Numbered from the stretch's first letter, positions 24,791 through 63,269 are shown. The stretch: DNA of 64,000 nucleotides from Camelus ferus (GCF_009834535.1 NC_045696.1:9922001-9986000), one strand, 5' to 3'. The notes: generated by a model from the sequence alone, not told the origin. A program made the numbers and translations.

Positions 24791-26835
24791 GAGGGGTGTA
24801 TATTTGGGGGCAGGCAGGATTCTGAGCAGGGAAGGGGGCCTTGTAGCAGGGCAAACTCAGAGACAAAGGCTGCCCCTCAAACCCCTTCTCTACCCCACCC
24901 ACCATCCCCCCAGGGCCCATCAAGCCAAACTACTTTTATTTACCTTCCATCAGCCTGGAGCAGAGACCTGAAGGAATGAAGTACTGATCCTTCCTAGATT
25001 CCTCTTATTCCCCTTTTCCTCTCCTTCCTGCCCCCAAAGTCCAGTGCCAGGGTCAACCTTGAGAACTGATGGGAACTGATGTTTTCTGAGCAAGCAGCTG
25101 AGTTTCGGGCTCTGTAGCAAAAAACAGACATCTGTCTTCTTCTTTGGCTGAAAAAAAAAAAAAAAAAGGTTGGCAAGACACAATCACACACACACAAAGT
25201 GAAAGCAGACAACATTGACCTTCCACTACTGACTGCCCCTTCCCCTCCCCAGATCAGTGCCTCCAAATATAAAATATCGTGCAGAATCCGAGCTGGGCTT
25301 ACAGGGATGGGGACAGAATTCCCGTGAAAGTGAAGTACACGCGTTGGAGGGATTTGAATGGCTCTAGCAAACTGTCCTTTCCCTTTGGAGTCTAGATCCC
25401 GGCTCAGACCCCACAGGTGAGGAAGAGGCCAAAAGCCAGGCCTGGAGGCCGACTCCTAAGCGGACAGCCGGGCTGCCACCCGGACACCGAGGCAAGGGCC
25501 CGCGAAAGTTATGCAGCCTCACGTGCCGCGCGGTATCGCTCGTGCACGTGCATATTTTGGGCCCTTCCTGAGCCGACGGGGACTGTTTGCGTGGAGTGAC
25601 CTGGTGCTCCCGGGCCAGGGACAACTTTGTTTTTGAAAACATCATTTCCTGTAATAGCTTGCGAAGAACTCAAAACCAAAATGGAATGTTTCCAGGCGCC
25701 AGAAACACCCCCCGCCACATTCCCCAGATGGAGATGATTCTCATGGATTCTCCGTAGACATCACCACCTCCTCAGCCTCCTTCTGAGGCAGGAGCTCAGC
25801 CTCTGAGCTGCTTTGGGCCAAACTCCCACTTCCAGAATGTTCTTCAAAGGACATCCCACCAGGAAGGGCAGCGGGCTGTTTGGTCATCCGAGGCAAGTGT
25901 GGTAAGAAATGGCTCCCTTCGGTCCTGGAGATAAAAATGCTGCCATGTGAAAGAGGCCTGCCGGCACCGGCTTTCATCCACTCGCTCATGGTGACCCGGA
26001 GGCTGGTTCCATGGGGTTTTTCATCCCCCCACAAGAGGAGATGAGAGCTTAAGGCCACCCCATCAGAGCAAGGGGTCCTCTGACCTCACATTCTTCCCAT
26101 CACTCTACAGCACTGAGAGTAAACAATACATTAAGTTAGATAACTCAGCCCGGTTGGTTGTGTCTAAATGAGTTACTGTGGGTTATGTGTGAGTTTTTAT
26201 GAGTTTATGGCATGTGTCTGAGTATAAACTAGGATGCCTCCTCCTCTCCCCGAGGAGACAGTGGAATGTTCTTTAAGGACCAAAGAGCTATAAAAGCCAG
26301 TCCATGGTGCACTGGAAAAATAAGGGGTTGGAGTCGAAAGGGCAGGAGAAGAAAGTCTAGGACGAGAGAAAACCCCAAAGGGATCAGCAGACCCATTACA
26401 TCAGAGTCGGGAGTTGCTGGAAAATGTGGGCTGGGAGTAAACAGATCCCCCAGACTTGACTCCTCAGCTAGGAAGGCAGGAGGCAGCCAGGAAGAGGGAC
26501 TGGACTCAGATCAAGTCAGGACCATGGGGACTATCCCCACACTGGCCAGAGCTGTCCTCTGTCCCCATGACTGCCCCAGAGGTTCCAGTCAGCTGCACCC
26601 TTGCCCTCACTGCTAGAGTCCACACTCTGATTCTGGAAGAACCGCCTACATGAGTGGCCATGAGTGATCCACCAGGAGAGGTCACCAAGGGGATGAGAGT
26701 GAGGGACCATCTGGCTGCTCCCAGGGCCTCCAGCCACAGCAGGAAAGACAGAGAGCAAGCAGCTGGCTGGCCCAGGAGGGTTTACTGCATTGAATAAACC
26801 AAGGGTTCAGACCTTATCCAGGAGAAATTGAAACC

Positions 26836-27480
26836 TTCATACATGCTGATGGGAATACAAAATGGTGCAGCCACTGTGAAAAACAGTTTGGCACTTTCTT
26901 GACAAGTTAAATGTAGAGTGACCATAATACCCCACAGTTCCACTCCTGGGTATGCACCTCAAAGAACTCAAAAGCAGGTATTCCAGTAAAAAACTTATAT
27001 AAGAACATTCATGGTCAGCACTATTCTCAATAGCCAAAAGGTGGAAACAACCCAAAGGCCCATCAGTGAATGGATAGATTAAAATGTAGTCTATGTATAC
27101 AATGGAATATTACCCAGCCATTAAAAGGAATGAAGCACTGACTCCTGCCGCCACCAAGTGGATGAACCTTGGAAACATTAGGCTACGTGAAAGAAGCTGG
27201 ACACAGAGGCCACGTGTTACATGATTCCATTCAAAGGAAATGTCCAAATAGGTAAATCTGTAGATATAGAAAGCAGATTTGTGGTTGCCAGGGGCAGGGG
27301 GTTGAGGGTGGACCGAAATGGTGAGTCACCGCTTGATGGGTGCAGGGCTTCTGTTTGAGATGATGAAAATTTCTGGAGCTAGAATTTACTGAATGCCACT
27401 AAATTGTACACTTTGAAATGGTTAAAATGATAACGTTTATGTTATGTGTATTTTACCACAACAAGAAGGTAAAAAAGGAA
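26836..27480 (+). mobile_element. L1MB-type 3' end
   Basis: cttcatacatgctgatgggaatacaaaatggtgcagccactgtgaaaaac...tggttgccagggg...gttatgtgtattttaccacaac. Confidence 0.9.
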
Positions 27481-29179: not shown

Positions 29180-30870
29180 GATGTGTATGATGACCCACAA
29201 ATCAAATTCCTGTCTTTAGCCCAGCCTTCTCTCTGAGCTTCAGATGCCTCGATCCATGTCCACTTGGATGTCTAATGTGTATTAGAATGTCCAGATTTAG
29301 ACATTCCAAACACAACTTTCCATTTCCTTCCCCACTTGAAAGCTATTCCACCCCTCTGGTCCCCATCTCAGTTAACGGGGTTACCATTCCCTGTCAGGCC
29401 AAAAGTCCGTAATCATCCTTGACTCTTTTCTTTTTCTCAAACTCCATATCCGATCCATCTGCAAAATCTGTCCACTCTACCTTCACAGTACACCCAGATC
29501 GCACAACTTCTCCCTACCTCCTCGGCTCTCACCCCCATCCAAGCTACCAGTGCCTCCCAGTCCATCTCCAGGTCTCCTGCCATCTATCCTCCACAAGGCG
29601 GCCAATGGGATCCTTCTGAGTCCAAGAATACTGTTTCCCCACCCTTAGTCCTACCTCTAATCTTCTGAATGCTCCCTGCTGACATTAGACTAAAATCCAA
29701 CACCTGCAAATCAAAACCACAATGAGATACCACCCCATGCCAATTACAATGGCTACTAACAACAACAACAACAAAAATCAGGAAATAACAACTGTTGGAG
29801 AGCATGTGGAGAAACTGGAACTTTTGTGCATTGTTGATGGGAAGGTAAAATGATGCAGTAACTATGGAAAACAGTATGGTGATTACTCTAAAAAAATTAA
29901 ATACAGAATCACCATATGATCCAGCATTTCTACTTCTGGGTACACATCCAAAAGATTTGAAAGCAGAGTCTGGAAGAGATATTTGTACACCCATGTTCAT
30001 AACAGCATTATTCACAATATCCAAGAGATGGAACCAATCTAAGTGTCCAGCAATGCATGAAGGGAGAAGCAAAATGTGATGTATATACACAACGGAATAT
30101 TATTCAGACTCAGAAAGGAAGGAAATTCTGACACATGCTACAACATGGATAAACCTTGAGGACATTATGCTCAGTGAAAGAAGCCAGAAACAAAAGAGCA
30201 AATTCTGCACAATTCCAGCTGTAAGAGGTACCTGGAGGAGGCAAATTCAATAGAGTTAGAAAATATGACGGTGGTTACCAGGGGCTGGGAGAAGAGGGAG
30301 TGGCGTTGTTAATTAATGGGTACAGATACTTAGTTTTATAGGAGAAAAAGTTCTGGAGATTGGTTGCATAGATGTGAGTGTACTTAACACTACTGAACTG
30401 TACACTTAAAAACAGTTAAGAGGGTAAATGTTATGTTATGTGTGTTTTAACCACATTTTTAAAAAACTCCTTCTATGTTCTCTGCACCTACGTGATCTGG
30501 CCCAGCCCCCTTCTCTGAACTCGTTACCCACAACCTTCCCCTTCCTCCTCAGCTCTAGCCATTCTGGCCTTCCAGTTGACATTCTTCCTTCCACCTGGAA
30601 TGTTCTTCCTGCAGACGTTCTCGGAACGTACCCTCCCAACCCCGCAGGCCTCTGCTTGGGGAGACCTCCCCTAAGGACCCTCTCCCAGATGGTGGCCTCC
30701 CGCACTGCATTTCCCGCTGTGGCACTTCCCAGTGTCCCCAGTGCAATTCTTTGCTTGTTTATTGCTTCTGTCTTCCTTGTTTGGGCAGAGGCTTTTCCTG
30801 CTTTCTCACCACTCTGTCTTCAGCTTTTGGCATGTAGTAGGTGCTCACTAAATAGTGATTTGAGAGAATT
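29180..30870 (+). mobile_element. L2 element split by an L1 insertion (L2 parts ~29180-29700 and ~30470-30870)
   Basis: tccacttggatgtctaat...catccttgactc before the L1; gatctggccc...gtagtaggtgctcactaaatag after it. Confidence 0.75.
29705..30465 (+). mobile_element. L1MA/MB-type 3' end with ORF2 C-terminal remnant
   Basis: tgcaaatcaaaaccacaatgagatacca; ORF 29864-30079 ([17 protein letters not shown]...[17 protein letters not shown]). Confidence 0.92.
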
Positions 30871-34507: not shown

Positions 34508-34706
34508 CCAACAATTCCAGTCCTGGGCACATATCCATAGGGAACTCTAATTCGAAAAGATACATGCACCCCAATGTTCATAGCAGCACAATTTATAGTA
34601 GCCAAGACATGGAAACAACATAAATGGCCATCAACAGATGACTGGATAAAAAAGTTGTGATACATATATTTTAAAAAGTTGTGAGATAGATATAGATATA
34701 GATAGG

Positions 34707-34764
<58 letters not shown>

Positions 34765-35270
34765 TACACATACACAATGGAATACTACTCAGCCATTAAA
34801 AAGAATAAAATAATGCCATTTGCAGCAACATGGATGGATCTGGAGATTGTCATTCTAAGTGAAGCAAGCCAGAAAGAGGAAGAAAAATACCACATGATAT
34901 CACTCATTTGTGGAATCTTAAAATAAATTTAAAAGACACAAATGAGCTTATTTACAAAACAGAAATAGCCTCACAGACATAGAAAACAAACTTATGGTAA
35001 CCAGGGGGGGAAATGGGTAGGAAGAGATAAATTGGGAGTTCAAAATTTGCAGATATTAACTACTGTACATAAAATAGGTAAATAACAAGTTTCTTCTGTA
35101 TAGCACAGGGAATTACATTCAATATCTTGTAGTAACACACAATGAAAAAGAATATGAAAATGAATATATGTATGTATATGTATGACTGAAAACATTATGT
35201 TGTACACTAGAAATTGACACAACATTGTAAACTACTATACTTCAATTTTTAAAATTCAGAGGAAGAAAAA
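34508..35270 (+). mobile_element. Artiodactyl-type L1 3' end (5'-truncated)
   Basis: caattccagtcctgggcacatatcc...ccaatgttcatagcagcac...ctgtatagcacagggaattacattcaatatcttg...attgacacaacattgtaaact. Confidence 0.92.
34684..34764. repeat. (GATA)n tetranucleotide STR, 14 perfect units at 34709-34764
   Basis: Counted directly; lies inside the L1 3' end. Confidence 0.98.
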
Positions 35271-36878
35271 AGGGGGAGGGGAATTGGGGGACAGGAGTGA
35301 GGAGAATGCAGATTCAAAATTCCAATTTTAGACTTTTTAATTGATAACATATGTGAGACTTCCAGATAAAGATACCACATCTGGGTAGTTGGAGCCCAGA
35401 GGAGGGGTTTAGGCTATAGACATAAATATTAGCTTTATTAGCACATTATAGATGGTATTTAAAGCCATGGATATGGATGAAAATCATCTAACAAAAACGT
35501 GTATAATTTTAAAATATAGATAATTTTTAAAGAAAACAGAAATCACTCATAATCTATGAACAGAGGTCATCATTTATAATTAGGTAGTTAGACCTTCTAG
35601 AATTTTAGTTATCCACATATAAGTATATGTATCACACGGGAGGACAGTGTTACTGAAGTAACAAACAATGGTCTTATTCACAATTTCCCCATATCCTTGG
35701 TCTTGTCTTCTTTCCTCCAACCTAGAGGTAGCAGCCAAGCCATCTGATGCCACTGCCTCAGCAAAGGCATGTGATAACAGAATAGCTTCTCGTTTTTGAG
35801 TTTCCAAGGGACATGGAAAGGACCAAGATCAGCCCCAGGTGACAGACTGGAAAAAGCACCCTGGTGAACACGTGTTCCAGTCTAGATAAAGTTCCCTTGG
35901 AATCGGGGGAGAGAGAGGACCAAAAGGAGGCAATGGGTCTCAGGTGCTGGTGGGTCCCAATGAGCAGGCCCTCCATTCTCTCCCCAGGCCAAATGCTGGA
36001 CCAGTCTCCATGTGGAATCTGATAGCAGCGGTGTCCTGGGCCTCTTTGCTCAGGTAACATCCAATAAGCAGGGCCAAGGCTCCAGAGTAGGAAAAATTGC
36101 CAAGTGAAGGGACTTTGACCCCCACTGTGGGGCAGAAGCAGCAGCAGGTGACTATGCACCCAAGTGCAGACAGAAAACACACAGCCAACGGACTGCACAG
36201 AGCTTCCGGCAGGGGAGGGACCCTTAGCAACCTGTGTGGACTAATGACCATGGACAACTCCATGGACATCAGCAAGGACCAGAGGGACCTCCAAGCATAT
36301 CTTGGCATATCAGAGCCCTTTGGAACATATACAACCAAGGGAAAATATGGAAACCCTAAGATGACATGGCAACATGGGGGCTCAAGATAGGAGTTAAATT
36401 CAGCTAAGGAAGAATCTTTTAAAGTTATACTTCCTGTGATGTATCAATAAATTATTGGAAGTTGTCTTTGCAGAGAGGTTGGAGATTCTGCAAGAGCAGG
36501 CAGAGGCAAATGTGGAAGAAGCACCATCTATTACCGTTCACCCCCTAGCCTTGAGCCTCCCAGGGCAGCAGGGCTTGGGAAACGAGGAAGGGAGGGCGGG
36601 GAGAGAGTAAAGACAGAGGGGGTGCTCTCCCCAGGACCTGGGACACAGTGAGCCTGGAGAGAATGCCAGTCATGCCCACTTCATTCATCACTGGCACAGT
36701 GCCTCACTCAATATTAAGGATCTAATAAACATTTGTGGAATGACAGAATGGTAGGAACACAATAAATATTTGTTAAATAAACACACATATTATGTATGTG
36801 AGATATAGAGTTTACAGAAGCAACGTAATATTGTTCAGGAACAAAACAGAAGAAAACATTTTCAATTCATCTAAATCT

Positions 36879-37440
36879 AGCAGCACTATTTACAATAGCC
36901 AAGACATGGAAACAGCCTAAATGTCCATCAACGGAAGACTGGATAAAGAAGATGTGGTATATTTATACAATGGAATACTACTCAGCCATAAAAACCGACA
37001 ACATAACGCCATTTGCAGCAACATGGATGCTTCTGGATAATGTCATTCTAAGTGAAGTAAGCCTGAAAGAGAAAGAGAAATACCATATGAGATCGCTTAT
37101 ATGTGGAATTTAAAACAAAAACAAAAACAAAAAAGCATAAATACAAAACAGAAATAGACTCATAGACATAGAATACAAACTTGTGGTTGCCAAGGGGGTG
37201 GAGGGTGGGAAGGGATAGAAGGGATTTCAAACTTGTAGAATAGATAAACAAGATTATACTGTATAGCACAGGGAAATATACACAAGATCTTATGGTAGCT
37301 CACAGAGAAAAAAATGTGACAGTGAATATATATATGTTCATGTATGACTGAAAAATTGTGCTCTACACTGGAATTTGACACAACATTGTACAATGATTAT
37401 AAATCAATAAAAAATTTAAAATAAATAAATAACAAAAAAA
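36879..37440 (+). mobile_element. Young lineage-specific L1, 5'-truncated, with poly(A) and TSD
   Basis: ORF2 C-terminus plus 3'UTR and A-tail; exact 15-bp TSD aattcatctaaatct at 36864-36878 and 37441-37455. Confidence 0.95.
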
Positions 37441-38499
37441 AATTCATCTAAATCTTACCATCCATGAAATCATCCTGTCGTTGATCTGGATAAAGGTGGA
37501 ATCGGAACATCTAGCCATTACTTCTTTCCCTGAAAGTTTTCCTTCTCTTGCAATAAAGCTTTTGCAATTACAATCATTAACCTCCTAGAGGCAGGAGTCT
37601 CATGCTGATGTCCCCACTGTCACTGTGAAGGGCTGGATCTGGCTCACTCCATCAGCGCCTGTGCAGTGGGACCACAGCCTCCTGCCCCAGTGGTCCTGAG
37701 GGCAGAGGCAGCCTGTGGCCGAAGCTGCCCTAGCCTGACCAGTGGATGGACCTTGTTCTGGTCCTGAAACTGGCACCACACCCCCGTCAGCAGTCCAGGC
37801 TTCTGCTCCGCGTCTGAGCGGGTGATCTTGGAGATACCTTTCAGCTTAAATGTTTGATGATTCTGAGCTTCTTTGATTAAAGTAGCTGATTGTCACATGG
37901 GACTGTTTCCAAATGCACGCGTCAGCACTGAAGCTGACACATAAAGAAGTCCGGGATCTCCCCAGGACGGGCAACCCGGGCATGAGGAAAGTTCTCCTGC
38001 CTGGCCAATGTCCCCACCCCCTGGACCTTCCAAAAAAGAGGAGAAACTCCTGCTGTGAGACAGAGGGCGCGAGGTGGGGTGCAGCCAGTACATGACCTTC
38101 CCTCTGCCCAGGAGCAGCACCTCCTCCCTCCTCTGGTGGCTCCAGCTCCCACAGATCAGGCCACCATGGCTCCAACTTCAAGGGTGACCCCAACCCCCGG
38201 AGCCAGCAACTTTACCTCCTCCCTTTGTCCCTGCCGCCAAGGGGTGGTCATGGCACATTGCTGTTGTTAACCTTTGAGTTGTCTGACTGTTCCCTATTTG
38301 ACTTCTCATCGCCCCTCCCCCCAATTCCCTGTATTATGTTTATTCCCATCTTAAGTACTTAGAAGGTCTTCTATTTGCCCAGTCGGACCTTGACAGACAC
38401 AAGGGCTGTGCAGCTACTGGAAAATGCAGGCCAGACACAGCCACTCTCCCCCAAGCCCCCTCTGGACAGGTGACAGGGTGATTGTGGGAGGCCTTACAA

Positions 38500-39518: not shown

Positions 39519-39683
39519 TTTTTTATTTATTTATGTTTATTTATTTTTTAATTAATTTTTTGGGTTTTGGGGGGAGGGAGTAATTGGATTTATTCATCTA
39601 TTTATTTAATGGAGGTACTGGGGCTTCAAATCAGGACCTCGTGCATGCTAGGCATGTGCTCTACCACTGAGCTATACCCTCCT
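39519..39683 (-). mobile_element. tRNA-Ala-derived SINE (camelid Vic-1 type), long form
   Basis: Reverse complement reads ggagggtatagctcagtggtagagcacatgcctagcatgcacgaggtcctg...cccagtacctccattaaataaata plus an A-rich tail. TSD caaatgcaataggactctt (39500-39518) / caaatgcattaagactctt (39684-39702). Confidence 0.9.
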
Positions 39684-44960: not shown

Positions 44961-46323
44961 GTTTTGTATTGTTGTTTGTTTTGTTTTTGTTTTTGAATTG
45001 AAGTATAATTGATATGTAACACTATATTTGTTTAAGGTGTACAACATAATGATTTGATATTTTTATATACTGCAAAATGATCATCAGAATAAATCTAGTT
45101 AACATCCATCACCATACATAGTTACAGACTTTTTTTCTTGGAATGAGAACTTTCAAGATCTACTCTCTTAGCAACTTTCAAATATGCGGTACAGTATTAA
45201 TTATAATCGCCATGCTGTACATTACATCCCCATGACTTACTTATGTTATAACTGGAAATTTGTACCTTTTGACCCCCTTCAGTCATTTCACCCACCTGCC
45301 ACTCCCCACCCCCCTGCTTCTGGCAACCACCAATCTGCTCTCTGTATCTATGAGTTTAGGTTTTTGTTTGTTCTTTCAGATTCCACATGTAAGTGAGATC
45401 ATACAGTATTTGTCTTTCTCTGTCTGACTTATTTCATTATTCCATAATGTCCTCAAAATCCATTCATGCTGTCACAATGGCAATAATTCATTCTTTTTTA
45501 TGGCTGAATAATCATTATGTATATATTTTTTAAATGTGATTTATGTACATACATATCATTTTATTTATCCATTATCTGTTGGTGGACATTTAGGTTGTTT
45601 CCGTGTCTTGACTATTGTAAATAACGCTGCAATGAACATGGGGCTGCAGATACCTTTTCAAATTAGTGCTTTCATTTTCTTAATGTAAAATACTCAGAGG
45701 TGGAATTGCTGGATCACATGGTAGTTTTATTTTTAATTTTTTGAGGAACCTCCATATTGTTTTCCATAATGGCTGCGCCAATTTACATTCTCACTGACAT
45801 TGCAAGAGGGTTTCCTTTTCGCCACATCCTCACCAACATTTATTTCTTGTCTTTTTTGATAATAACCATTCTAATAGGTATGAGGTGATAGCGCATTGTG
45901 GTTTTGATTTGCATTTCCATGATGATTAGTGATTTGAGCATCTTTTCATGTATCTTATGTCTTCTTTGGGAAAATGTCTCTTCAGATCCTTTGCCCATTT
46001 TTTTTGTTTCTTTTTTTATTGAGTAATCGTTATCTTACAATGCTGTGTCAAATTCTAGTGTAGAGCACAATTTTTCAGTCATACATGAACATGTATATAT
46101 TCATTGTTACATTTTGTTTTTCGCTATGAGCTACCACAAGATCTTGTATATATTTCCCTGTGCTATACAGTATAATCTTGTTTATCTATTCTGCATTTTA
46201 AAATCCCAGTCTGTCCCTTCCCACCCCCCACCCCCTTGGCAACCACAAGTTTGTATTCTATGTCTATGAGTCTGTTTCTGTTTTGTATTTCTGTTTTGTT
46301 TGTTTGTTTGTTTGTTAGATTCC

Positions 46324-46683
46324 TCATATAAGCAATCTCATATGGTATTTTTCTTTCTCTTTCTGGCTTACTTCACTTTGAATGACATTCTCCAGGAACA
46401 TCCATGTTGCTGCAAATGGCGTTATGTTGTCAGTTTTTGTGGATGAATAGTATTCCATCGTATAAATATACCACATCTTCTTTATCCAGTCATCTGTTGA
46501 CGGACATTTAGGCTGTTTCCACGTCTTGGCTATTGTAAATAATGCTGCTATGAACATTGGCGTGCAGGTGTCATTTTGAAGTAGGGTTCCTTCTGGATGT
46601 ATGCCCAGGAGCGGGATTCCTGGGTCACATGGTAAGTCTATTCCTAGTCTTTTGAGGAATCTCCATACTGTTTTCCACAGTGG
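46324..46683 (-). pseudogene. L1 ORF2p C-terminal remnant (about 120 codons)
   Basis: Translates PLWKTVWRFLKRLGIDLPCDPGIPLLGIHP...[41 protein letters not shown]. Confidence 0.92.
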
Positions 46684-46826
46684 CTTTCCTTGCTTCCCTC
46701 TCCCACTCTTAATGATTTAGATGTCTTCTTTTACAATTTTGTGTTTATTCTATTTGTAATTTATGGTAGTTATCACCTTTCCAGTTATAAGTTTCTCATT
46801 TTTGTAGCATCATGCTTCTTTTCTAT

Positions 46827-47546
46827 TTAGAGTAGACCTGTCAATATTTCTTTTAGCATGGGTTTAGTGTTGCAAAACTCTTTTAGTTTTTGCTTGTCTG
46901 TGAAGTTCTTTAACTCTCCTTCTATTCTAAAGGATAGCCTTGCTGGATAGAGTATCCTAGGCTGCATCTTTTTTTCATTCAGGTGTGGGTCTGTTTGGGT
47001 TCTTCCTTCTGAGCTTCCTGTACTTGGATATCTGATTCTTTCTTTAGGTTTGGGACGTTTTCAGTCATGATTTCTTCAAATACCTTTTCAATTCCCTTTG
47101 TCCTTTCTTCCCCTTCTGGAATCCCTATTATGCGTAGATTGGCATGCTTTATATTATCCCATAGGTCCCTTATGTTGCTTTCATTGTTTTTTATTTGTTT
47201 TTCTGTCAGCTGTTCTGATTGGGTGTTTTCTGTTGTCCTGTCTTCTAGGTCACTTATTCGTTCCTCTGCATTATCTAGCCTGCTTTGTACAGCCTTTAGG
47301 TCAGCTCTCATCTCAGCAAATGAGTTCACTAATTCTACTTGGTTCTTCTTTATAGCTTCTGTTTCAGTTTTGACATTTTATATCTCTAAACACTGTTTCT
47401 TTTAGTTCCTTCAGTACTTTGATCACTCCTTTTTTGAAATCGTGCTCTAGTAGGCCATCAATGTCTATTTCCTTGATAGTGCTTTCAGGGGATTTCTCTT
47501 GATCTTTTAATTGGGAGTGGCTCCTCTGCTTCTTCATATTGCTCAT
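46827..47546 (-). pseudogene. Disrupted L1 ORF1p
   Basis: Three pieces: MSNMKKQRSHSQLKDQEKSPE... (47546-47364); ...RLDNAEERISDLEDR...LRIIGIPEGEE...VQEAQ (47329-~47010); LNEKKMQPRILYPARLSFRIEGELKNFTDKQKLKEF...ILTGLL* (46982-46827). Frameshift near 47375 and an internal deletion near 46983. Confidence 0.9.
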
Positions 47547-48882
47547 ATCTCTCTGGCACTGTGGCTTAAGGAGTATCAGTTATCTAGTTCTCCTGGAGAT
47601 GGTGTGCTCTTAATGATTTTATCGAGAGGTCTTTGTGTCTTCACCCTGTTTCACGAACTCAGCTTGCTGTTTCCAGAGGCCCTCTGTTGGTGCCCTTGTC
47701 TGTGCTGCTCCCAGTGGCTGTCGGCAAGCAGATCGCGCCCCCTCCCAACACTGGGTCAGGTGCTGAGCTCTTACCCAGTGGGCGGACAGGTCACTCCCCC
47801 TCCTGATGCCGCAGTCAGGGGGTGGGGGGGAGGCAGGTGGGCAGATCGCACGCCCTCCCAGCACCATGGTCAGGTGCTGTGTTCCTGCCAGGAAGGGGGG
47901 GTGGCCGCCCGTCCTCTCCCAGCACTGGGTGCTCCTCTGCTCTGTGCAGCTGCCCGCTCCACCTCTGGTCGGTGCTCCGAAGGCAGGCTCGGGGAAGACC
48001 ACGGAACCGCCCTGTCCCTGCTCCAGGCCAAATCTCAGCTCCTTGTTTGTCTTGGCGGGGCAAGTTCTCTGGGGTGCCAGGGCAGAGAGATCCTGTCTGC
48101 CTCGGGCTGTAAACAATTCTCAGTCCTGAGCAGGAGGTTGCAGAGCCCCCCAGTGCGGATGCAGGCCTCGGCCCCGCCCCGCCGGGGCGCTGCGCACAGG
48201 AGGAGGTGGTGGCTGTGGCTGCGCCCCGCCTCTCTTCTCGCGAGAAGCAAAAGTAATGGCGCCGCGGGTCTGAGGAGACAAAGACTATGGCGCCCCTCCC
48301 CCCAGGGCACACCAGCTGTGTTGCTTTGCTTTTTTTTCCGCAATTTATGGGGGACCGAGGTTGTTCTGCTCTGTATCCTCTCCCAGCCATGGCGCGCAGC
48401 CCCCTGCAGCCCCCCGGGGCCACCTCAGTGCAGCCGTCCCCATCCTCCACCCGGCTCGGGCAGCCTGTCCCGGCCCCAGCTGCCAGCTCGCGTCTCAGGC
48501 TGGGTGTTGCGGGGACCCTTTGTGCCCATTTAACTCAGTTCTGTCGGTCAAGGGGTGCTCAGGGCAGATCTGAGCCTCGGAGGCTCCCCCTCCATCCCGC
48601 TGGCCTCTCCGTTGGAGGGGAGACCCAGCAAATAAGCGCTAGTCCTCCTTTGCTGCTCCCTCCCCGCGGGATCGGTCCCACACTGTTTTGCTTTTTCTTC
48701 TTTCTTTTTTCCTTTTCTCCTACCAGATTTTTGGCATCTTTGTCTTTTTAAGAGGGCAATGTTCTGTCAGAGTTCGGCAGGAGCTCTGGTTGGCTGAGTA
48801 GGTCCATAGGTGTGAGTTTTGGTGTATTTGTGGGAGAGGGTGAGCTACAAGCATCCTTCTACTCCGCCATCTTGCTTCTCTC
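47547..48882 (-). promoter_or_regulatory. L1 5'UTR internal promoter / CpG-rich island
   Basis: GC- and CpG-rich; YY1 motif aagatggcgg at the element start (ccgccatctt ~48864-48873), GC boxes (ccccgccc ~48173), and palindrome cttctcgcgagaag 48234-48247. Confidence 0.8.
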
Positions 48883-49789
48883 TCCTTTGCCCATTTTAAA
48901 ATCAGATTTTTCTTTGTTTGTTTGCCTTTGAGTTGTATGAGTTCTTTATATATTTTTTATATTAGTCTCCTAGATATATGAGTTGCAAATATTTTCTTCC
49001 ATTCAGGAGATTGCCTTCTCATTTTGTTGATGGTTTCCTTTGCTGTGCATAAGATTTTTAGTTTAAAGTCAGAGCCCACATTTTATCAACTGCTCCCAAA
49101 ATAAGAAATAAATTAATCCTTAGATTGGGCGTTTTTTCATCCAAATCTTTGACTGGAATGCAAAACACCTGGGTTATGGAAACACCAGGCAAAAGGGCTT
49201 TATAAACATTCTTTTAAAAGCAGTGCTTTGTATCAGTCTCAGAGAGAAAATGCCTTTTGTTAGCATGGAAAAGAAAGCTGAGATTATAGGAGATTCTTGT
49301 TTCCCTTCCCTGTTCCTTTGAGGAGCTGCTTCTCCCCAGGCTGACGTGGCCCTGAGGAGGTGGTGACAATGGCACAGGCCTGGCCAGTAGCAGGGCCCTC
49401 AAGGCTCCCACCAATCTGGAAGGCCAAGGAAGGGGTGTGTAACCAAGCAGGGCGGTCCAGCTCGTCCACAATTTCACATGTCCCTGCTGGGAGAAAGAGA
49501 TGCTCCACTTGCCCCTTTCTGGGCATCAAGCCACAGAGACCTGGAGATGAGGCACCATGTTCCTCTGCCGGAGATACAAGTCCACAGCCAGAAGGGATGA
49601 TGCCTGGGAGAGCCAAGCTGCAGGGACTGAAGTGGGTAGACAGATTCCCAACCCAACTCACACCTGAGCAGAAACAATAAATAAATAAGTAAAGCCTCGC
49701 TTTGTCCCAAGCTGGGCTGGGTTCATTTTCTTTTACTTGCCAATTAAAGCATCCTAAGTGGGTCTGAGTGCAAAACACAATCTCACAAT

Positions 49790-49955
49790 TTCAATACTTA
49801 TATTTCTTATATCTATTTCTTATTTTTTTACATTATATGCCTACATAATATTATATATCATATTTATTATTACTTACATTTATAATTATGTAGAGAATGT
49901 ATATGTATTTATATTATATGTTATATTCTTATGTATTTCATAAATTTTATAAATT
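49790..49955. repeat. AT-rich low-complexity tract
   Basis: Seen directly. Confidence 0.85.
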
Positions 49956-51059
49956 CTGTGAATTTCAAGCATACTCCATTTTCAAATGAAACCACAGAGA
50001 CAAGTGCCAAGGTCAAACATTTGGAACCGCCACCTTTTCATCGGCTCCTGTAGCACTGGTTTTCTGTGTATTTTATAGCTAAGGTCTGGTACTCATTTTT
50101 AGCTGGTAAGTTCCAGAGGATGTAGACAGTAACTTCTGACTTAATCACCAGCTCCCCCACCCTCATGAGATGTCAGCTGTGCATACTTGAGTTTTTTAAT
50201 TTGTGTTTCTACCTGTATTGCTATTTTTGTCTAACAAAACTCATCCTATGATTAACTGTTTTCATTTTCTCTTTTCTCATAAAAGGTGTTACTCAAAATG
50301 AATTTCCCTAGCATTTCACAGCTTTCTAGAATCTGTGGCCAAAAGACTAGTTTTCCATTTCTATATCCAGGCCTGATATGTGGACAGATTTGGGGGTGAC
50401 TTCAGGGCTTTGAGGGTCCCTGCCTATCCCAGGGCTTCACCACTTTCTTCCTGAGGTTTTAAAGTCCTCAGTGCACTGCCTCTCGTTCCTATGGGATGAC
50501 TTAAAAGTGTAACTCCACCTGGCAGAGGTGACACGTGGATTAGTTAATTCACAATAGGAAATTAATGAGTGAGAACAGATCCTTTCCAATTCTGAAAGGT
50601 GCAAAGAAGGAGGTAAGAAAAGGTGGGCAGAGGTTTATTTTGGGAGAAGTCCAAGAATGGGGAGCAATCCTGGAGGAAGGGACTGAGGACACCAGAGCTG
50701 CCCTGTAACGCAGCCCCGCCGGCAACACAACATGGTACTCACCGCAGCTTTCCCCTGCACGTGACCTCAGGCAACTACTCAACTTTCCCCATCTCTTCTG
50801 TAAATGGAGACCATCATATTTACATCACAGGATGTTGTGTTTCTTAAAATATCTCAAGTCTACGGTGTGTGAGCTTGATACCCAAGGTTCACTGCCAGTA
50901 TGCAAAAACCTTAATTCCAGTCTCTTCAGATAAATAAACATTTGTGGCATGACATAGGGAATAAATGAATGAAGAAATGAATGAAGAATCAGCTCTCCCT
51001 CCAGTCAGTTGATCGACAGCCACCATTTATGTCGCATCTGCTTTGCCAGCCAGCACAGT

Positions 51060-61034: not shown

Positions 61035-61485
61035 TTTTTATTTTATTTTTATTTTTTTTTTACTGAAATATAATTTACATACTATGACATTCACCATTTT
61101 AAAGTGTACAACTTAGTGGGTTTTAGTATATTCACAAAGTTGTGCAACCACCACCACTATCTAATTCTGGAATTAAATTTCATCACTCCAAAAAAGAAAT
61201 CCTTGTACCCATTAGCAGTCACTCCCCATTCCTGATTCCACAGCCCTTGGCAACCTGCAACCTGCTTTCTGTATAGATTTGCCTCTTTGGACACATTTCA
61301 AATAAATGGAGTCTTATGATATGTGACCTTTTCACTCAGCATGCTGTTTTCAACGTCTACCCACGTGGTAGTATATGTTAGTACATCGTTCCTTTTTATG
61401 GCTGAATAATATTTCGTTGTATGGATACACCACATTTTGCATCTCTGTTCACCCACTGATGGATATTTGAGTTGTTTCCACTTCC
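61035..61485 (-). mobile_element. L1MB-type 3' end
   Basis: T-rich tail, ttcaccattttaaagtgtacaac...ttgtgcaaccaccaccact; ORF 61298-61495 (WKQLKYPS...YYSAIKRND). Confidence 0.92.
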
Positions 61486-62389: not shown

Positions 62390-62710
62390 AATTTGCCAGA
62401 GGCTGGGGGAGGAGAGAATGGGGAGAGATTGCTAACAGATATGAAGTTTCTTTTTTGGTCTGGTGAAAACATTCTTGAATTAGATAGTAGTGATGGGGGG
62501 AGGGTAGAGCTCGGTGGTAGAGCACCTGCTTAGCATGCATAAGGTCCTGGGTTCAATCCCCAGAACCTCCATTAAAAAAATGAAGTACTAAATAGTGGTG
62601 ATGGCTGCACAACCTTGTGAATGTGCTAGAAACCACTGAAATGTGCATTTTAAAAAGGTAAGCGAATTTTATGGTATGTGAATCATATCTCAATAAAATT
62701 TAAAAATGAA
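62390..62710 (+). mobile_element. L1MB/ME 3' terminus with nested SINE
   Basis: ttgccagaggctggggg...gatagtagtgatgg|SINE|ctgcacaaccttgtgaat...tatctcaataaa. Confidence 0.85.
62495..62591 (+). mobile_element. tRNA-Ala(AGC)-derived SINE (camelid Vic-1 type), short form
   Basis: gggagggtagagctcggtggtagagcacctgcttagcatgcataaggtcctgggttcaatccccagaacctcca with A and B boxes and an A tail. TSD atagtagtgatgg (62484-62496) / atagtggtgatgg (62592-62604). Confidence 0.9.
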
Positions 62711-63269
62711 ATAATAATAATAATGACTCATCATAGTATTGCAAATAAGAGCGGGGGAAAAAAATGCCTGGAGTAGAGTAGAAGATAGTCTACTTTCAAA
62801 TGTGAGTTTTGCTCCTGAGCAAAAACTGTAGTAAATTTCCCTGCATCTCTGTCACTGCCCAAATTCCCTGAAGCCCTCCCCCTGCCATTCCCACTGCAGA
62901 AGGCTGGTCTCCCAAAATCCCCAGCTTTCCCCGGCTAAAGGGACACCCCGGTCCACAGACTTCGGTGGAAGTTCACTTAACGGCTTTGCCCCTAAGAATG
63001 TATTTTAAGAGAACGCTGCCTGGCTTACAACGTGATTTGGAAATATGCTGCTGGCTGTGTTTTATGCATTTTGTCAAGTGTTTTAACTTTGTACTGGCTG
63101 CGACCATGAAGGACACAGTTTTCGAAGGTTGAAGTTAAATAATAATTTCACACCCGAATATGTTCAACCAGGCTGCCGGGCAGCAAGCTGCGGGGTGGGC
63201 ACTGCTCTGGAGCCCCAGGGGCAGTCTCACGTTGGTTGCACAGCGGCCACTGGTCAAGTTTGAGGCTGG

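Follow-up and report, generated by a model that had tools for sequence, protein, structure and literature searches.

A LINE-1 element of Camelus ferus with both ends retained and clustered internal losses, most likely an ordinary dead copy

Introduction

The question raised by this locus is whether a retrotransposon that has kept both of its ends and lost most of its coding interior belongs to a family that spreads in this form, or is a single damaged copy. The element is of the LINE-1 (long interspersed element-1, L1) type and lies in a stretch of 64,000 nucleotides of Camelus ferus DNA (GCF_009834535.1 NC_045696.1:9922001-9986000), hereafter the window, from the first letter of which all positions are counted. 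A first-pass annotation of the window had left three explanations side by side, namely a non-autonomous L1 derivative such as a half-L1 (HAL1), the insertion of a spliced RNA, and a one-off deletion, and among these the one-off deletion is ranked here as the most likely. The element is read as an L1 that is dead and carries internal deletions in a cluster, which arose at this locus or in one short-lived parent, with a probability of about 0.5; the weights placed on this and on all other readings are judgements and not computed values. The element is real, cleanly bounded, dead and more internally damaged than first described, and it is most likely ordinary.

Insertion and target site

The 2,881-bp L1 runs on the minus strand from 48882 to 46002 and is nested in an older L1 (Table 1). 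The exact 15-bp target-site duplications (TSDs) that had been claimed for it are confirmed, with 15/15 positions identical as in a normal L1 insertion; such a match has a chance probability of ~1e-8 at a fixed site and of ~1e-4 across 100x100 placements. On the strand of the element the target site is TT/AAAA, which is of the endonuclease type and corresponds to the preference of the L1 endonuclease (PMC5860796), while the TSD lengths of full-length L1s peak at 14-16 bp (PMC2912911). When the insert is removed, the flanks translate as contiguous ORF2 of the older L1 (...KNLILKWAKDLKRHFPKEDI...). Since the TSDs pair, the site is TT/AAAA and the flanks rejoin as an older ORF2, both ends of the element come from one insertion by target-primed reverse transcription (TPRT). 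All the features by which such a LINE-1 insertion is recognised are found together, i.e., a TSD within ~7-20 bp, TT/AAAA with a poly(A) tail, and homology to ORF1 and ORF2.

Architecture of the element

The layout proposed earlier, in which the 5' untranslated region (5'UTR), ORF1 and the spacer are followed by a jump into the end of ORF2, the 3'UTR and the poly(A) on the minus strand, proved correct, with a 5'UTR of 1,336 bp, 143 bp of spacer and 122 codons of ORF2. The jump, first put near ~46685, is now placed between 46684 and 46683. The endonuclease and reverse transcriptase (RT) regions are indeed lost, ORF2 being reduced to its last 122 codons; this remnant begins just past the Cys-rich motif, which is itself absent, and 46686-46318 is matched at 90% by an ORF2 fragment from the dromedary (its residues 33-155). 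On the ORF2 side of the join microhomology would amount to at most ~2 bp. Pig L1s have spacers mostly of 390-529 bp and an ORF2 of ~3,800 bp (PMC6501411), and by these lengths ~3.7-3.8 kb would be missing and the full-length parent would have measured ~6.8 kb.

ORF1 had been described as remnants, which is accurate as far as it goes; the breakage not described there consists of losses of 2, 11 and 170 bp relative to P0242, 183 bp in total. The first ORF1 frame reaches a stop after 60 codons, and only 25 bp are retained between the 11-bp and the 170-bp losses. Pfam matches to ORF1 (PF17489, PF02994 and PF17490) cover the RBD profile at 2-49 of 98 and the dsRBD (C-terminal) profile at 17-63 of 65. 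The coiled coil is kept, whereas the RRM is reduced by half and the CTD has lost its beginning. ORF1 is 75-89% identical to its close relatives and 88-89% to the closest, and both larger breaks are read through in 5/5 close relatives (P0242, P0241, P0121, P0257 and P0256), a sample biased to open frames. Judged by its reading frames, the element can make neither a working ORF1p nor a working ORF2p.

The 5'UTR contains degenerate short repeats at 47728-47864, and parts of it match, in antisense, 5'UTR-derived pieces of the dromedary gene model P0256. Near its 5' end stands a motif that we take to be YY1-like. A complete YY1 site has been taken as a mark of full-length L1s (Kojima, 2010). The promoter had been called intact. 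Its presence is borne out by the 1,336 bp and the YY1-like motif; the word intact is an overstatement, because CpG observed/expected in the 5'UTR is 0.46. The region is better described as a predicted promoter, present yet CpG-depleted and partly decayed.

A 340-codon frame without stops, counted without requiring a start codon, lies antisense to the 5'UTR at 47511-48533 (+); it has no Pfam match and is probably due to the high G+C. The gene model P0256 (XP_064339253.1), named 'cylicin-1' in the dromedary, contains pieces of the L1 family of the element, from ORF1 in sense and from the 5'UTR in antisense, and is probably mis-built.

Table 1. Features of the element and of its insertion site, in window coordinates
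Feature	Position	Strand	Remark
TSD, 5' copy, 15 bp	48883..48897	minus	Preceded by TT (TT/AAAA site)
5'UTR / internal promoter region, 1,336 bp	47547..48882	minus	G+C 61%, CpG observed/expected 0.46
YY1-like motif, ~10 nt from 5' end	48864..48873	minus	Motif match
ORF1 remnant, 720 bp (903 bp in the 300-aa relative P0242)	46827..47546	minus	ATG at 47546, stop 46829-46827
2-bp ORF1 loss, frameshift	47374..47375	minus	Codon arithmetic against P0242
11-bp ORF1 loss	47007..47008	minus	Codon arithmetic against P0242
170-bp ORF1 loss (P0242 residues 194-249)	46982..46983	minus	Codon arithmetic against P0242, Pfam
Inter-ORF spacer, first 143 bp retained	46684..46826	minus	End resembles pig L1 spacer by eye
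Spacer-to-ORF2 join	46683..46684	minus	~3.7-3.8 kb probably missing, from pig L1 lengths
ORF2, last 122 codons and stop	46315..46683	minus	Premature stop three codons before end
3'UTR	46015..46314	minus	G-rich tract ~46216-46236; AATAAA 46020-46015
Poly(A) tail, interrupted	46002..46017	minus	Border with A-starting TSD ambiguous
TSD, 3' copy	45987..46001	minus	100% identical to 5' copy over 15 nt
Older host L1 ORF2 fragment, upstream part	48898..49085	minus	Flank translation
Older host L1 ORF2 fragment, downstream part	45900..45986	minus	Continues past translated stretch

Origin of the internal losses

The structure could be best explained with a camelid L1 that inserted with both ends by ordinary TPRT, the copy of ~6.8 kb being then shortened by error-prone DNA break repair or by serial template switching, presumably with overlaps of 0-2 bp. 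The losses of 11 bp, 170 bp and ~3.7 kb lie together in a span of 325 retained bases and possibly go back to one complex event, in which case several independent rare deletions would not be needed. Complex repair or template-switching events with very short overlaps are a generally known mechanism, and a jump of the RT during insertion would have the same outcome. The presence of three breaks rather than one counts in favour of a single damaged copy, as does a build unlike that of the pig element HAL1_SSc. The clustering of the breaks is no more than suggestive of one complex event, with P = 0.035 over the whole element and P = 0.11 within the 1,545 bp that can be checked.

Among 21 dromedary-named ORF2-end proteins, 18 keep ORF2 upstream of the join (16 by pattern and 2 by eye), two start downstream of it and one has an unrelated start; residues derived from the spacer are found in 0/21. 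This evidence leans slightly against a dominant family. In DNA, the 24-nt exact join pattern gave 0 matches in viral and metagenome contigs. The P0242 probe matched by pattern 121 times in prokaryote genomes, 6 times in viral contigs and 185 times in metagenome contigs, with 0 confirmed by tblastn, and the ORF2-end probe 5 times in viral contigs, again with 0 confirmed. The 3'UTR pattern gave 0 in prokaryote genomes and viral contigs, and the whole element 0 against plasmids and phages. None of these searches has power for copy number, and the negatives carry no weight, because even broad probes for the L1 family concerned came up empty there. Of the 24 sequencing runs listed, 14, under four organism labels, contain 0.64-0.69 of 516 sampled words from 45500-50500 against a crude expectation of 0.54-0.59 with the element absent; the gap is small and silent on the join, and the word counts are not used as evidence. 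A literature search found no internally deleted camelid L1 family described, Repbase and Dfam lying outside that search so that a curated entry may exist. Likewise, the main text of a survey of Camelus transposable elements (PMC8605555), taken apart from its supplements, has 0 occurrences of 'ORF2', 'ORF1' and 'internal deletion'. A 60-aa antisense frame across the join was compared with 1.84 billion representatives, and its 3 matches, all unrelated tandem-repeat proteins, were rejected.

Several points weigh against a single damaged copy. Within the 1,545 bp open to checking, the clustering falls short of significance, and the negative DNA searches lend no weight to a single locus. The protein counts are biased, since gene prediction prefers open frames that begin at a start codon, whereas in a deleted copy no in-frame Met would precede the join. 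Moreover, the large break starts in the spacer right after ORF1, as expected of a non-autonomous family that keeps ORF1.

Non-autonomous families

An amplified non-autonomous family, its two forms taken together, is possible though unlikely. The first form, which by itself is distinctly improbable, holds that the element is a decayed copy of a HAL1-like family, the master of which retained the 5'UTR together with an open ORF1, was deprived of ORF2 in one event and spread via the ORF2p of intact L1s, the three ORF1 breaks being acquired by this copy after insertion. In favour of this, the element shares with HAL1 an L1 5'UTR, an ORF1 region, the start of the spacer and a poly(A) end at ~3 kb, with no endonuclease or RT. 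Its break starts 143 bp past the ORF1 stop with both ends and the poly(A) present, and restoring the 183 bp of ORF1 would give ~3.06 kb, a HAL1-like size. HAL1s have also arisen independently several times in mammals (PMC5753468). However, HAL1 is a multi-copy family that encodes ORF1p only (PMC5753468; PMC13756887), whereas one copy is known here and its ORF1 is broken three times, so that on this reading the 170-bp and 11-bp losses would have to postdate the insertion; the copy itself lacks an ORF1p frame, and an intact parent is possible. Pig HAL1_SSc, compared by eye from its consensus (PMC6501411, supplement 1), has what looks like an open ORF1, ~250 bp of spacer and AT-rich foreign sequence with no ORF2 end, while the element ends in the ORF2 end and 3'UTR of its own family. 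No second join has been found, in searches without power for it. The HAL1 membership suggested by the first-pass annotation is therefore not supported as stated, given the three breaks and the foreign tail of HAL1_SSc. Rather, the element reads as a plain internal deletion of one L1 that is HAL1-like in outline.

The second form assumes that the large losses of both ORF1 and ORF2 were already present in the master, and that a non-coding bipartite L1 family spread in trans from its own RNA polymerase II promoter like a long short interspersed element (SINE). The promoter region, the YY1-like motif, the 3'UTR and the poly(A) are all there, several deletions would be expected of an unselected master lineage, and ORF2p can mobilise any poly(A) RNA (PMC13756887). 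As in the bipartite ORF-absent LINEs (Bov-A, RIME and RTESINE; Kojima, 2018, PMC5786205), what is usable of the parent is confined to its 5' and 3' parts, and both are present here without a working ORF. Those LINEs are defined as families, whereas the element is known from one copy, and in the clade list given there, as of 2018, they come from the RTE, Ingi, Vingi and R2 clades only and not from L1. In addition, the ORF1 breaks are missing from the 5/5 close ORF1 relatives, although that sample is biased, and spliced L1 RNAs with a defective ORF1 are reported to retrotranspose in trans at a low level only (PMC5860796). We consider a non-coding family to be quite doubtful.

Splicing and assembly

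The first-pass annotation had also pointed to an AG acceptor-like context on the ORF2 side of the join, and a single spliced RNA integrant resembling SpIREs (spliced integrated retrotransposed elements) would have lost an intron that stretched between the spacer and the end of ORF2 and been inserted by ORF2p acting in trans. An AG at this place is indeed possible. The join follows a Gln codon (LVQ/PLW), Gln is also present in the dromedary proteins, an older copy in the window near 26844 that retains the codons upstream of the join has CAG there, and the left edge of the element at the join ends in AG, as exons often do. However, only 5/20 upstream bases in that older copy are pyrimidines, which is no polypyrimidine tract. 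In the pig consensuses (PMC6501411, supplement 1, by eye) the join codon is CAA in 6/6 places shown, and the homologue of the spacer has no GT at the left edge in 6/6 places shown. A donor-like GTAAG lies ~10 nt upstream of that edge in the pig, and the matching stretch has been kept in the element. The pig comparison is not final, because the camelid parent may differ.

The 170-bp loss of ORF1 is a further difficulty, as it would not be a GT-AG intron: by the alignment with P0242, the Thr-Pro-Arg codons at its left edge should give GT in no register, and therefore at least one large loss would be no intron and would require another cause anyway. The comparison with described SpIREs (Larson et al., 2018, PMC5860796) leads in the same direction. 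They share with the element the retention of both ends, the loss of an internal piece and the hallmarks of TPRT, and they are dead ends. Their joins, however, run from a 5'UTR donor to acceptors in the 5'UTR or ORF1 and they keep ORF2, whereas here ORF2 is lost and the join is spacer-to-ORF2. The AG context thus stands as possible while the splicing reading as a whole is weakened, and such an integrant appears to us quite improbable.

An assembly error, in which a full-length L1 was collapsed or mis-joined, is very improbable even though short-read assembly of L1s is generally difficult, for the window contains 0 N, the overlap at the join (apparently at most ~2 bp) is far below the lengths at which assemblers join, three separate breaks would be required and the TSDs pair correctly.

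Relatives and age

There is agreement with the camelid affinity proposed earlier, the closest named ORF2 relatives being Camelus dromedarius L1 models with a top amino acid (aa) identity of 91% (e.g., KAB1262767.1). A camelid LINE-1 carries the name L1-2_Vpa in Repbase (table in PMC6726744). With camelid LINE-1s the element shares an ORF2 end 91% identical in aa to the best dromedary model, an ORF1 at 75-89%, standard ends, the TSD and the target site; it differs in that the spacer and ORF2 are together short of probably ~3.7-3.8 kb, and ORF1 of 183 bp. The ORF2 remnant has a mean aa identity of 86.6% to the dromedary set, 19 members of which are 83-90% identical among themselves. As the remnant falls within this spread, and the identity of ORF1 to its nearest relative is 88-89%, both halves look equally old, with no sign of a long separate lineage.

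A sister L1 3' fragment of the same family (36864-37455, +, ~560 bp) is 5'-truncated, 90% identical to the element and flanked by a TSD of its own, exact over 15 bp (36864-36878 and 37441-37455). The fragment stops short of the join. The aligned part (36879-37440) differs from the element at 49/525 bases, i.e., 9.3% (Kimura two-parameter distance 0.10), or 7.6% without CpG sites. With a neutral rate of ~2-2.5e-9 per site per year, half of this divergence would correspond to some 15-25 million years, which is a maximum should the two copies belong to different subfamilies. The camels of the Old World and those of the New World diverged ~16.3 million years ago (PMC12127551), and given this estimate the insertion site may be common to llamas and alpacas. 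The copy is a fossil in decay, and old enough to have decayed.

Significance

A single deleted copy is an ordinary fossil, of use at most as a dated marker and as an example of clustered deletions, and the element stays ordinary unless the join recurs. If the join were to recur with different TSDs, it would mark a camelid non-autonomous L1 family for which the literature search turned up no description. Were the ORF1 losses shared as well, an L1-derived RNA would, in spite of cis preference, have spread with neither protein of its own, and this would bear on how HAL1s and SINE-like parasites start. A non-coding family would, for its part, be an ORF-dead bipartite LINE of the L1 clade, which is absent from the clade list of Kojima (2018, PMC5786205).

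Other sequences in the window

No host gene is identified in the window, where 28 open frames reach 130 aa or more; 23 are without a Pfam match and the other 5 are those of the element itself. An older L1 3' fragment at 34508-35250 (+) is 75-82% identical to the element, and its ORF2 end is split by a GATA-type microsatellite at ~34680-34765. Further old 3' fragments of L1 ORF2 lie at 26821-27371, 29705-30455, 2687-2962 and 61175-61483. By self-BLAST, 61035-61253 and 62393-62723 are inverted similar stretches (75%); Rfam gives a tRNA match of low score (35.4 bits) at 62500-62571, with a look-alike at 39600-39682, and the two inverted stretches are probably old copies of a tRNA-derived SINE.

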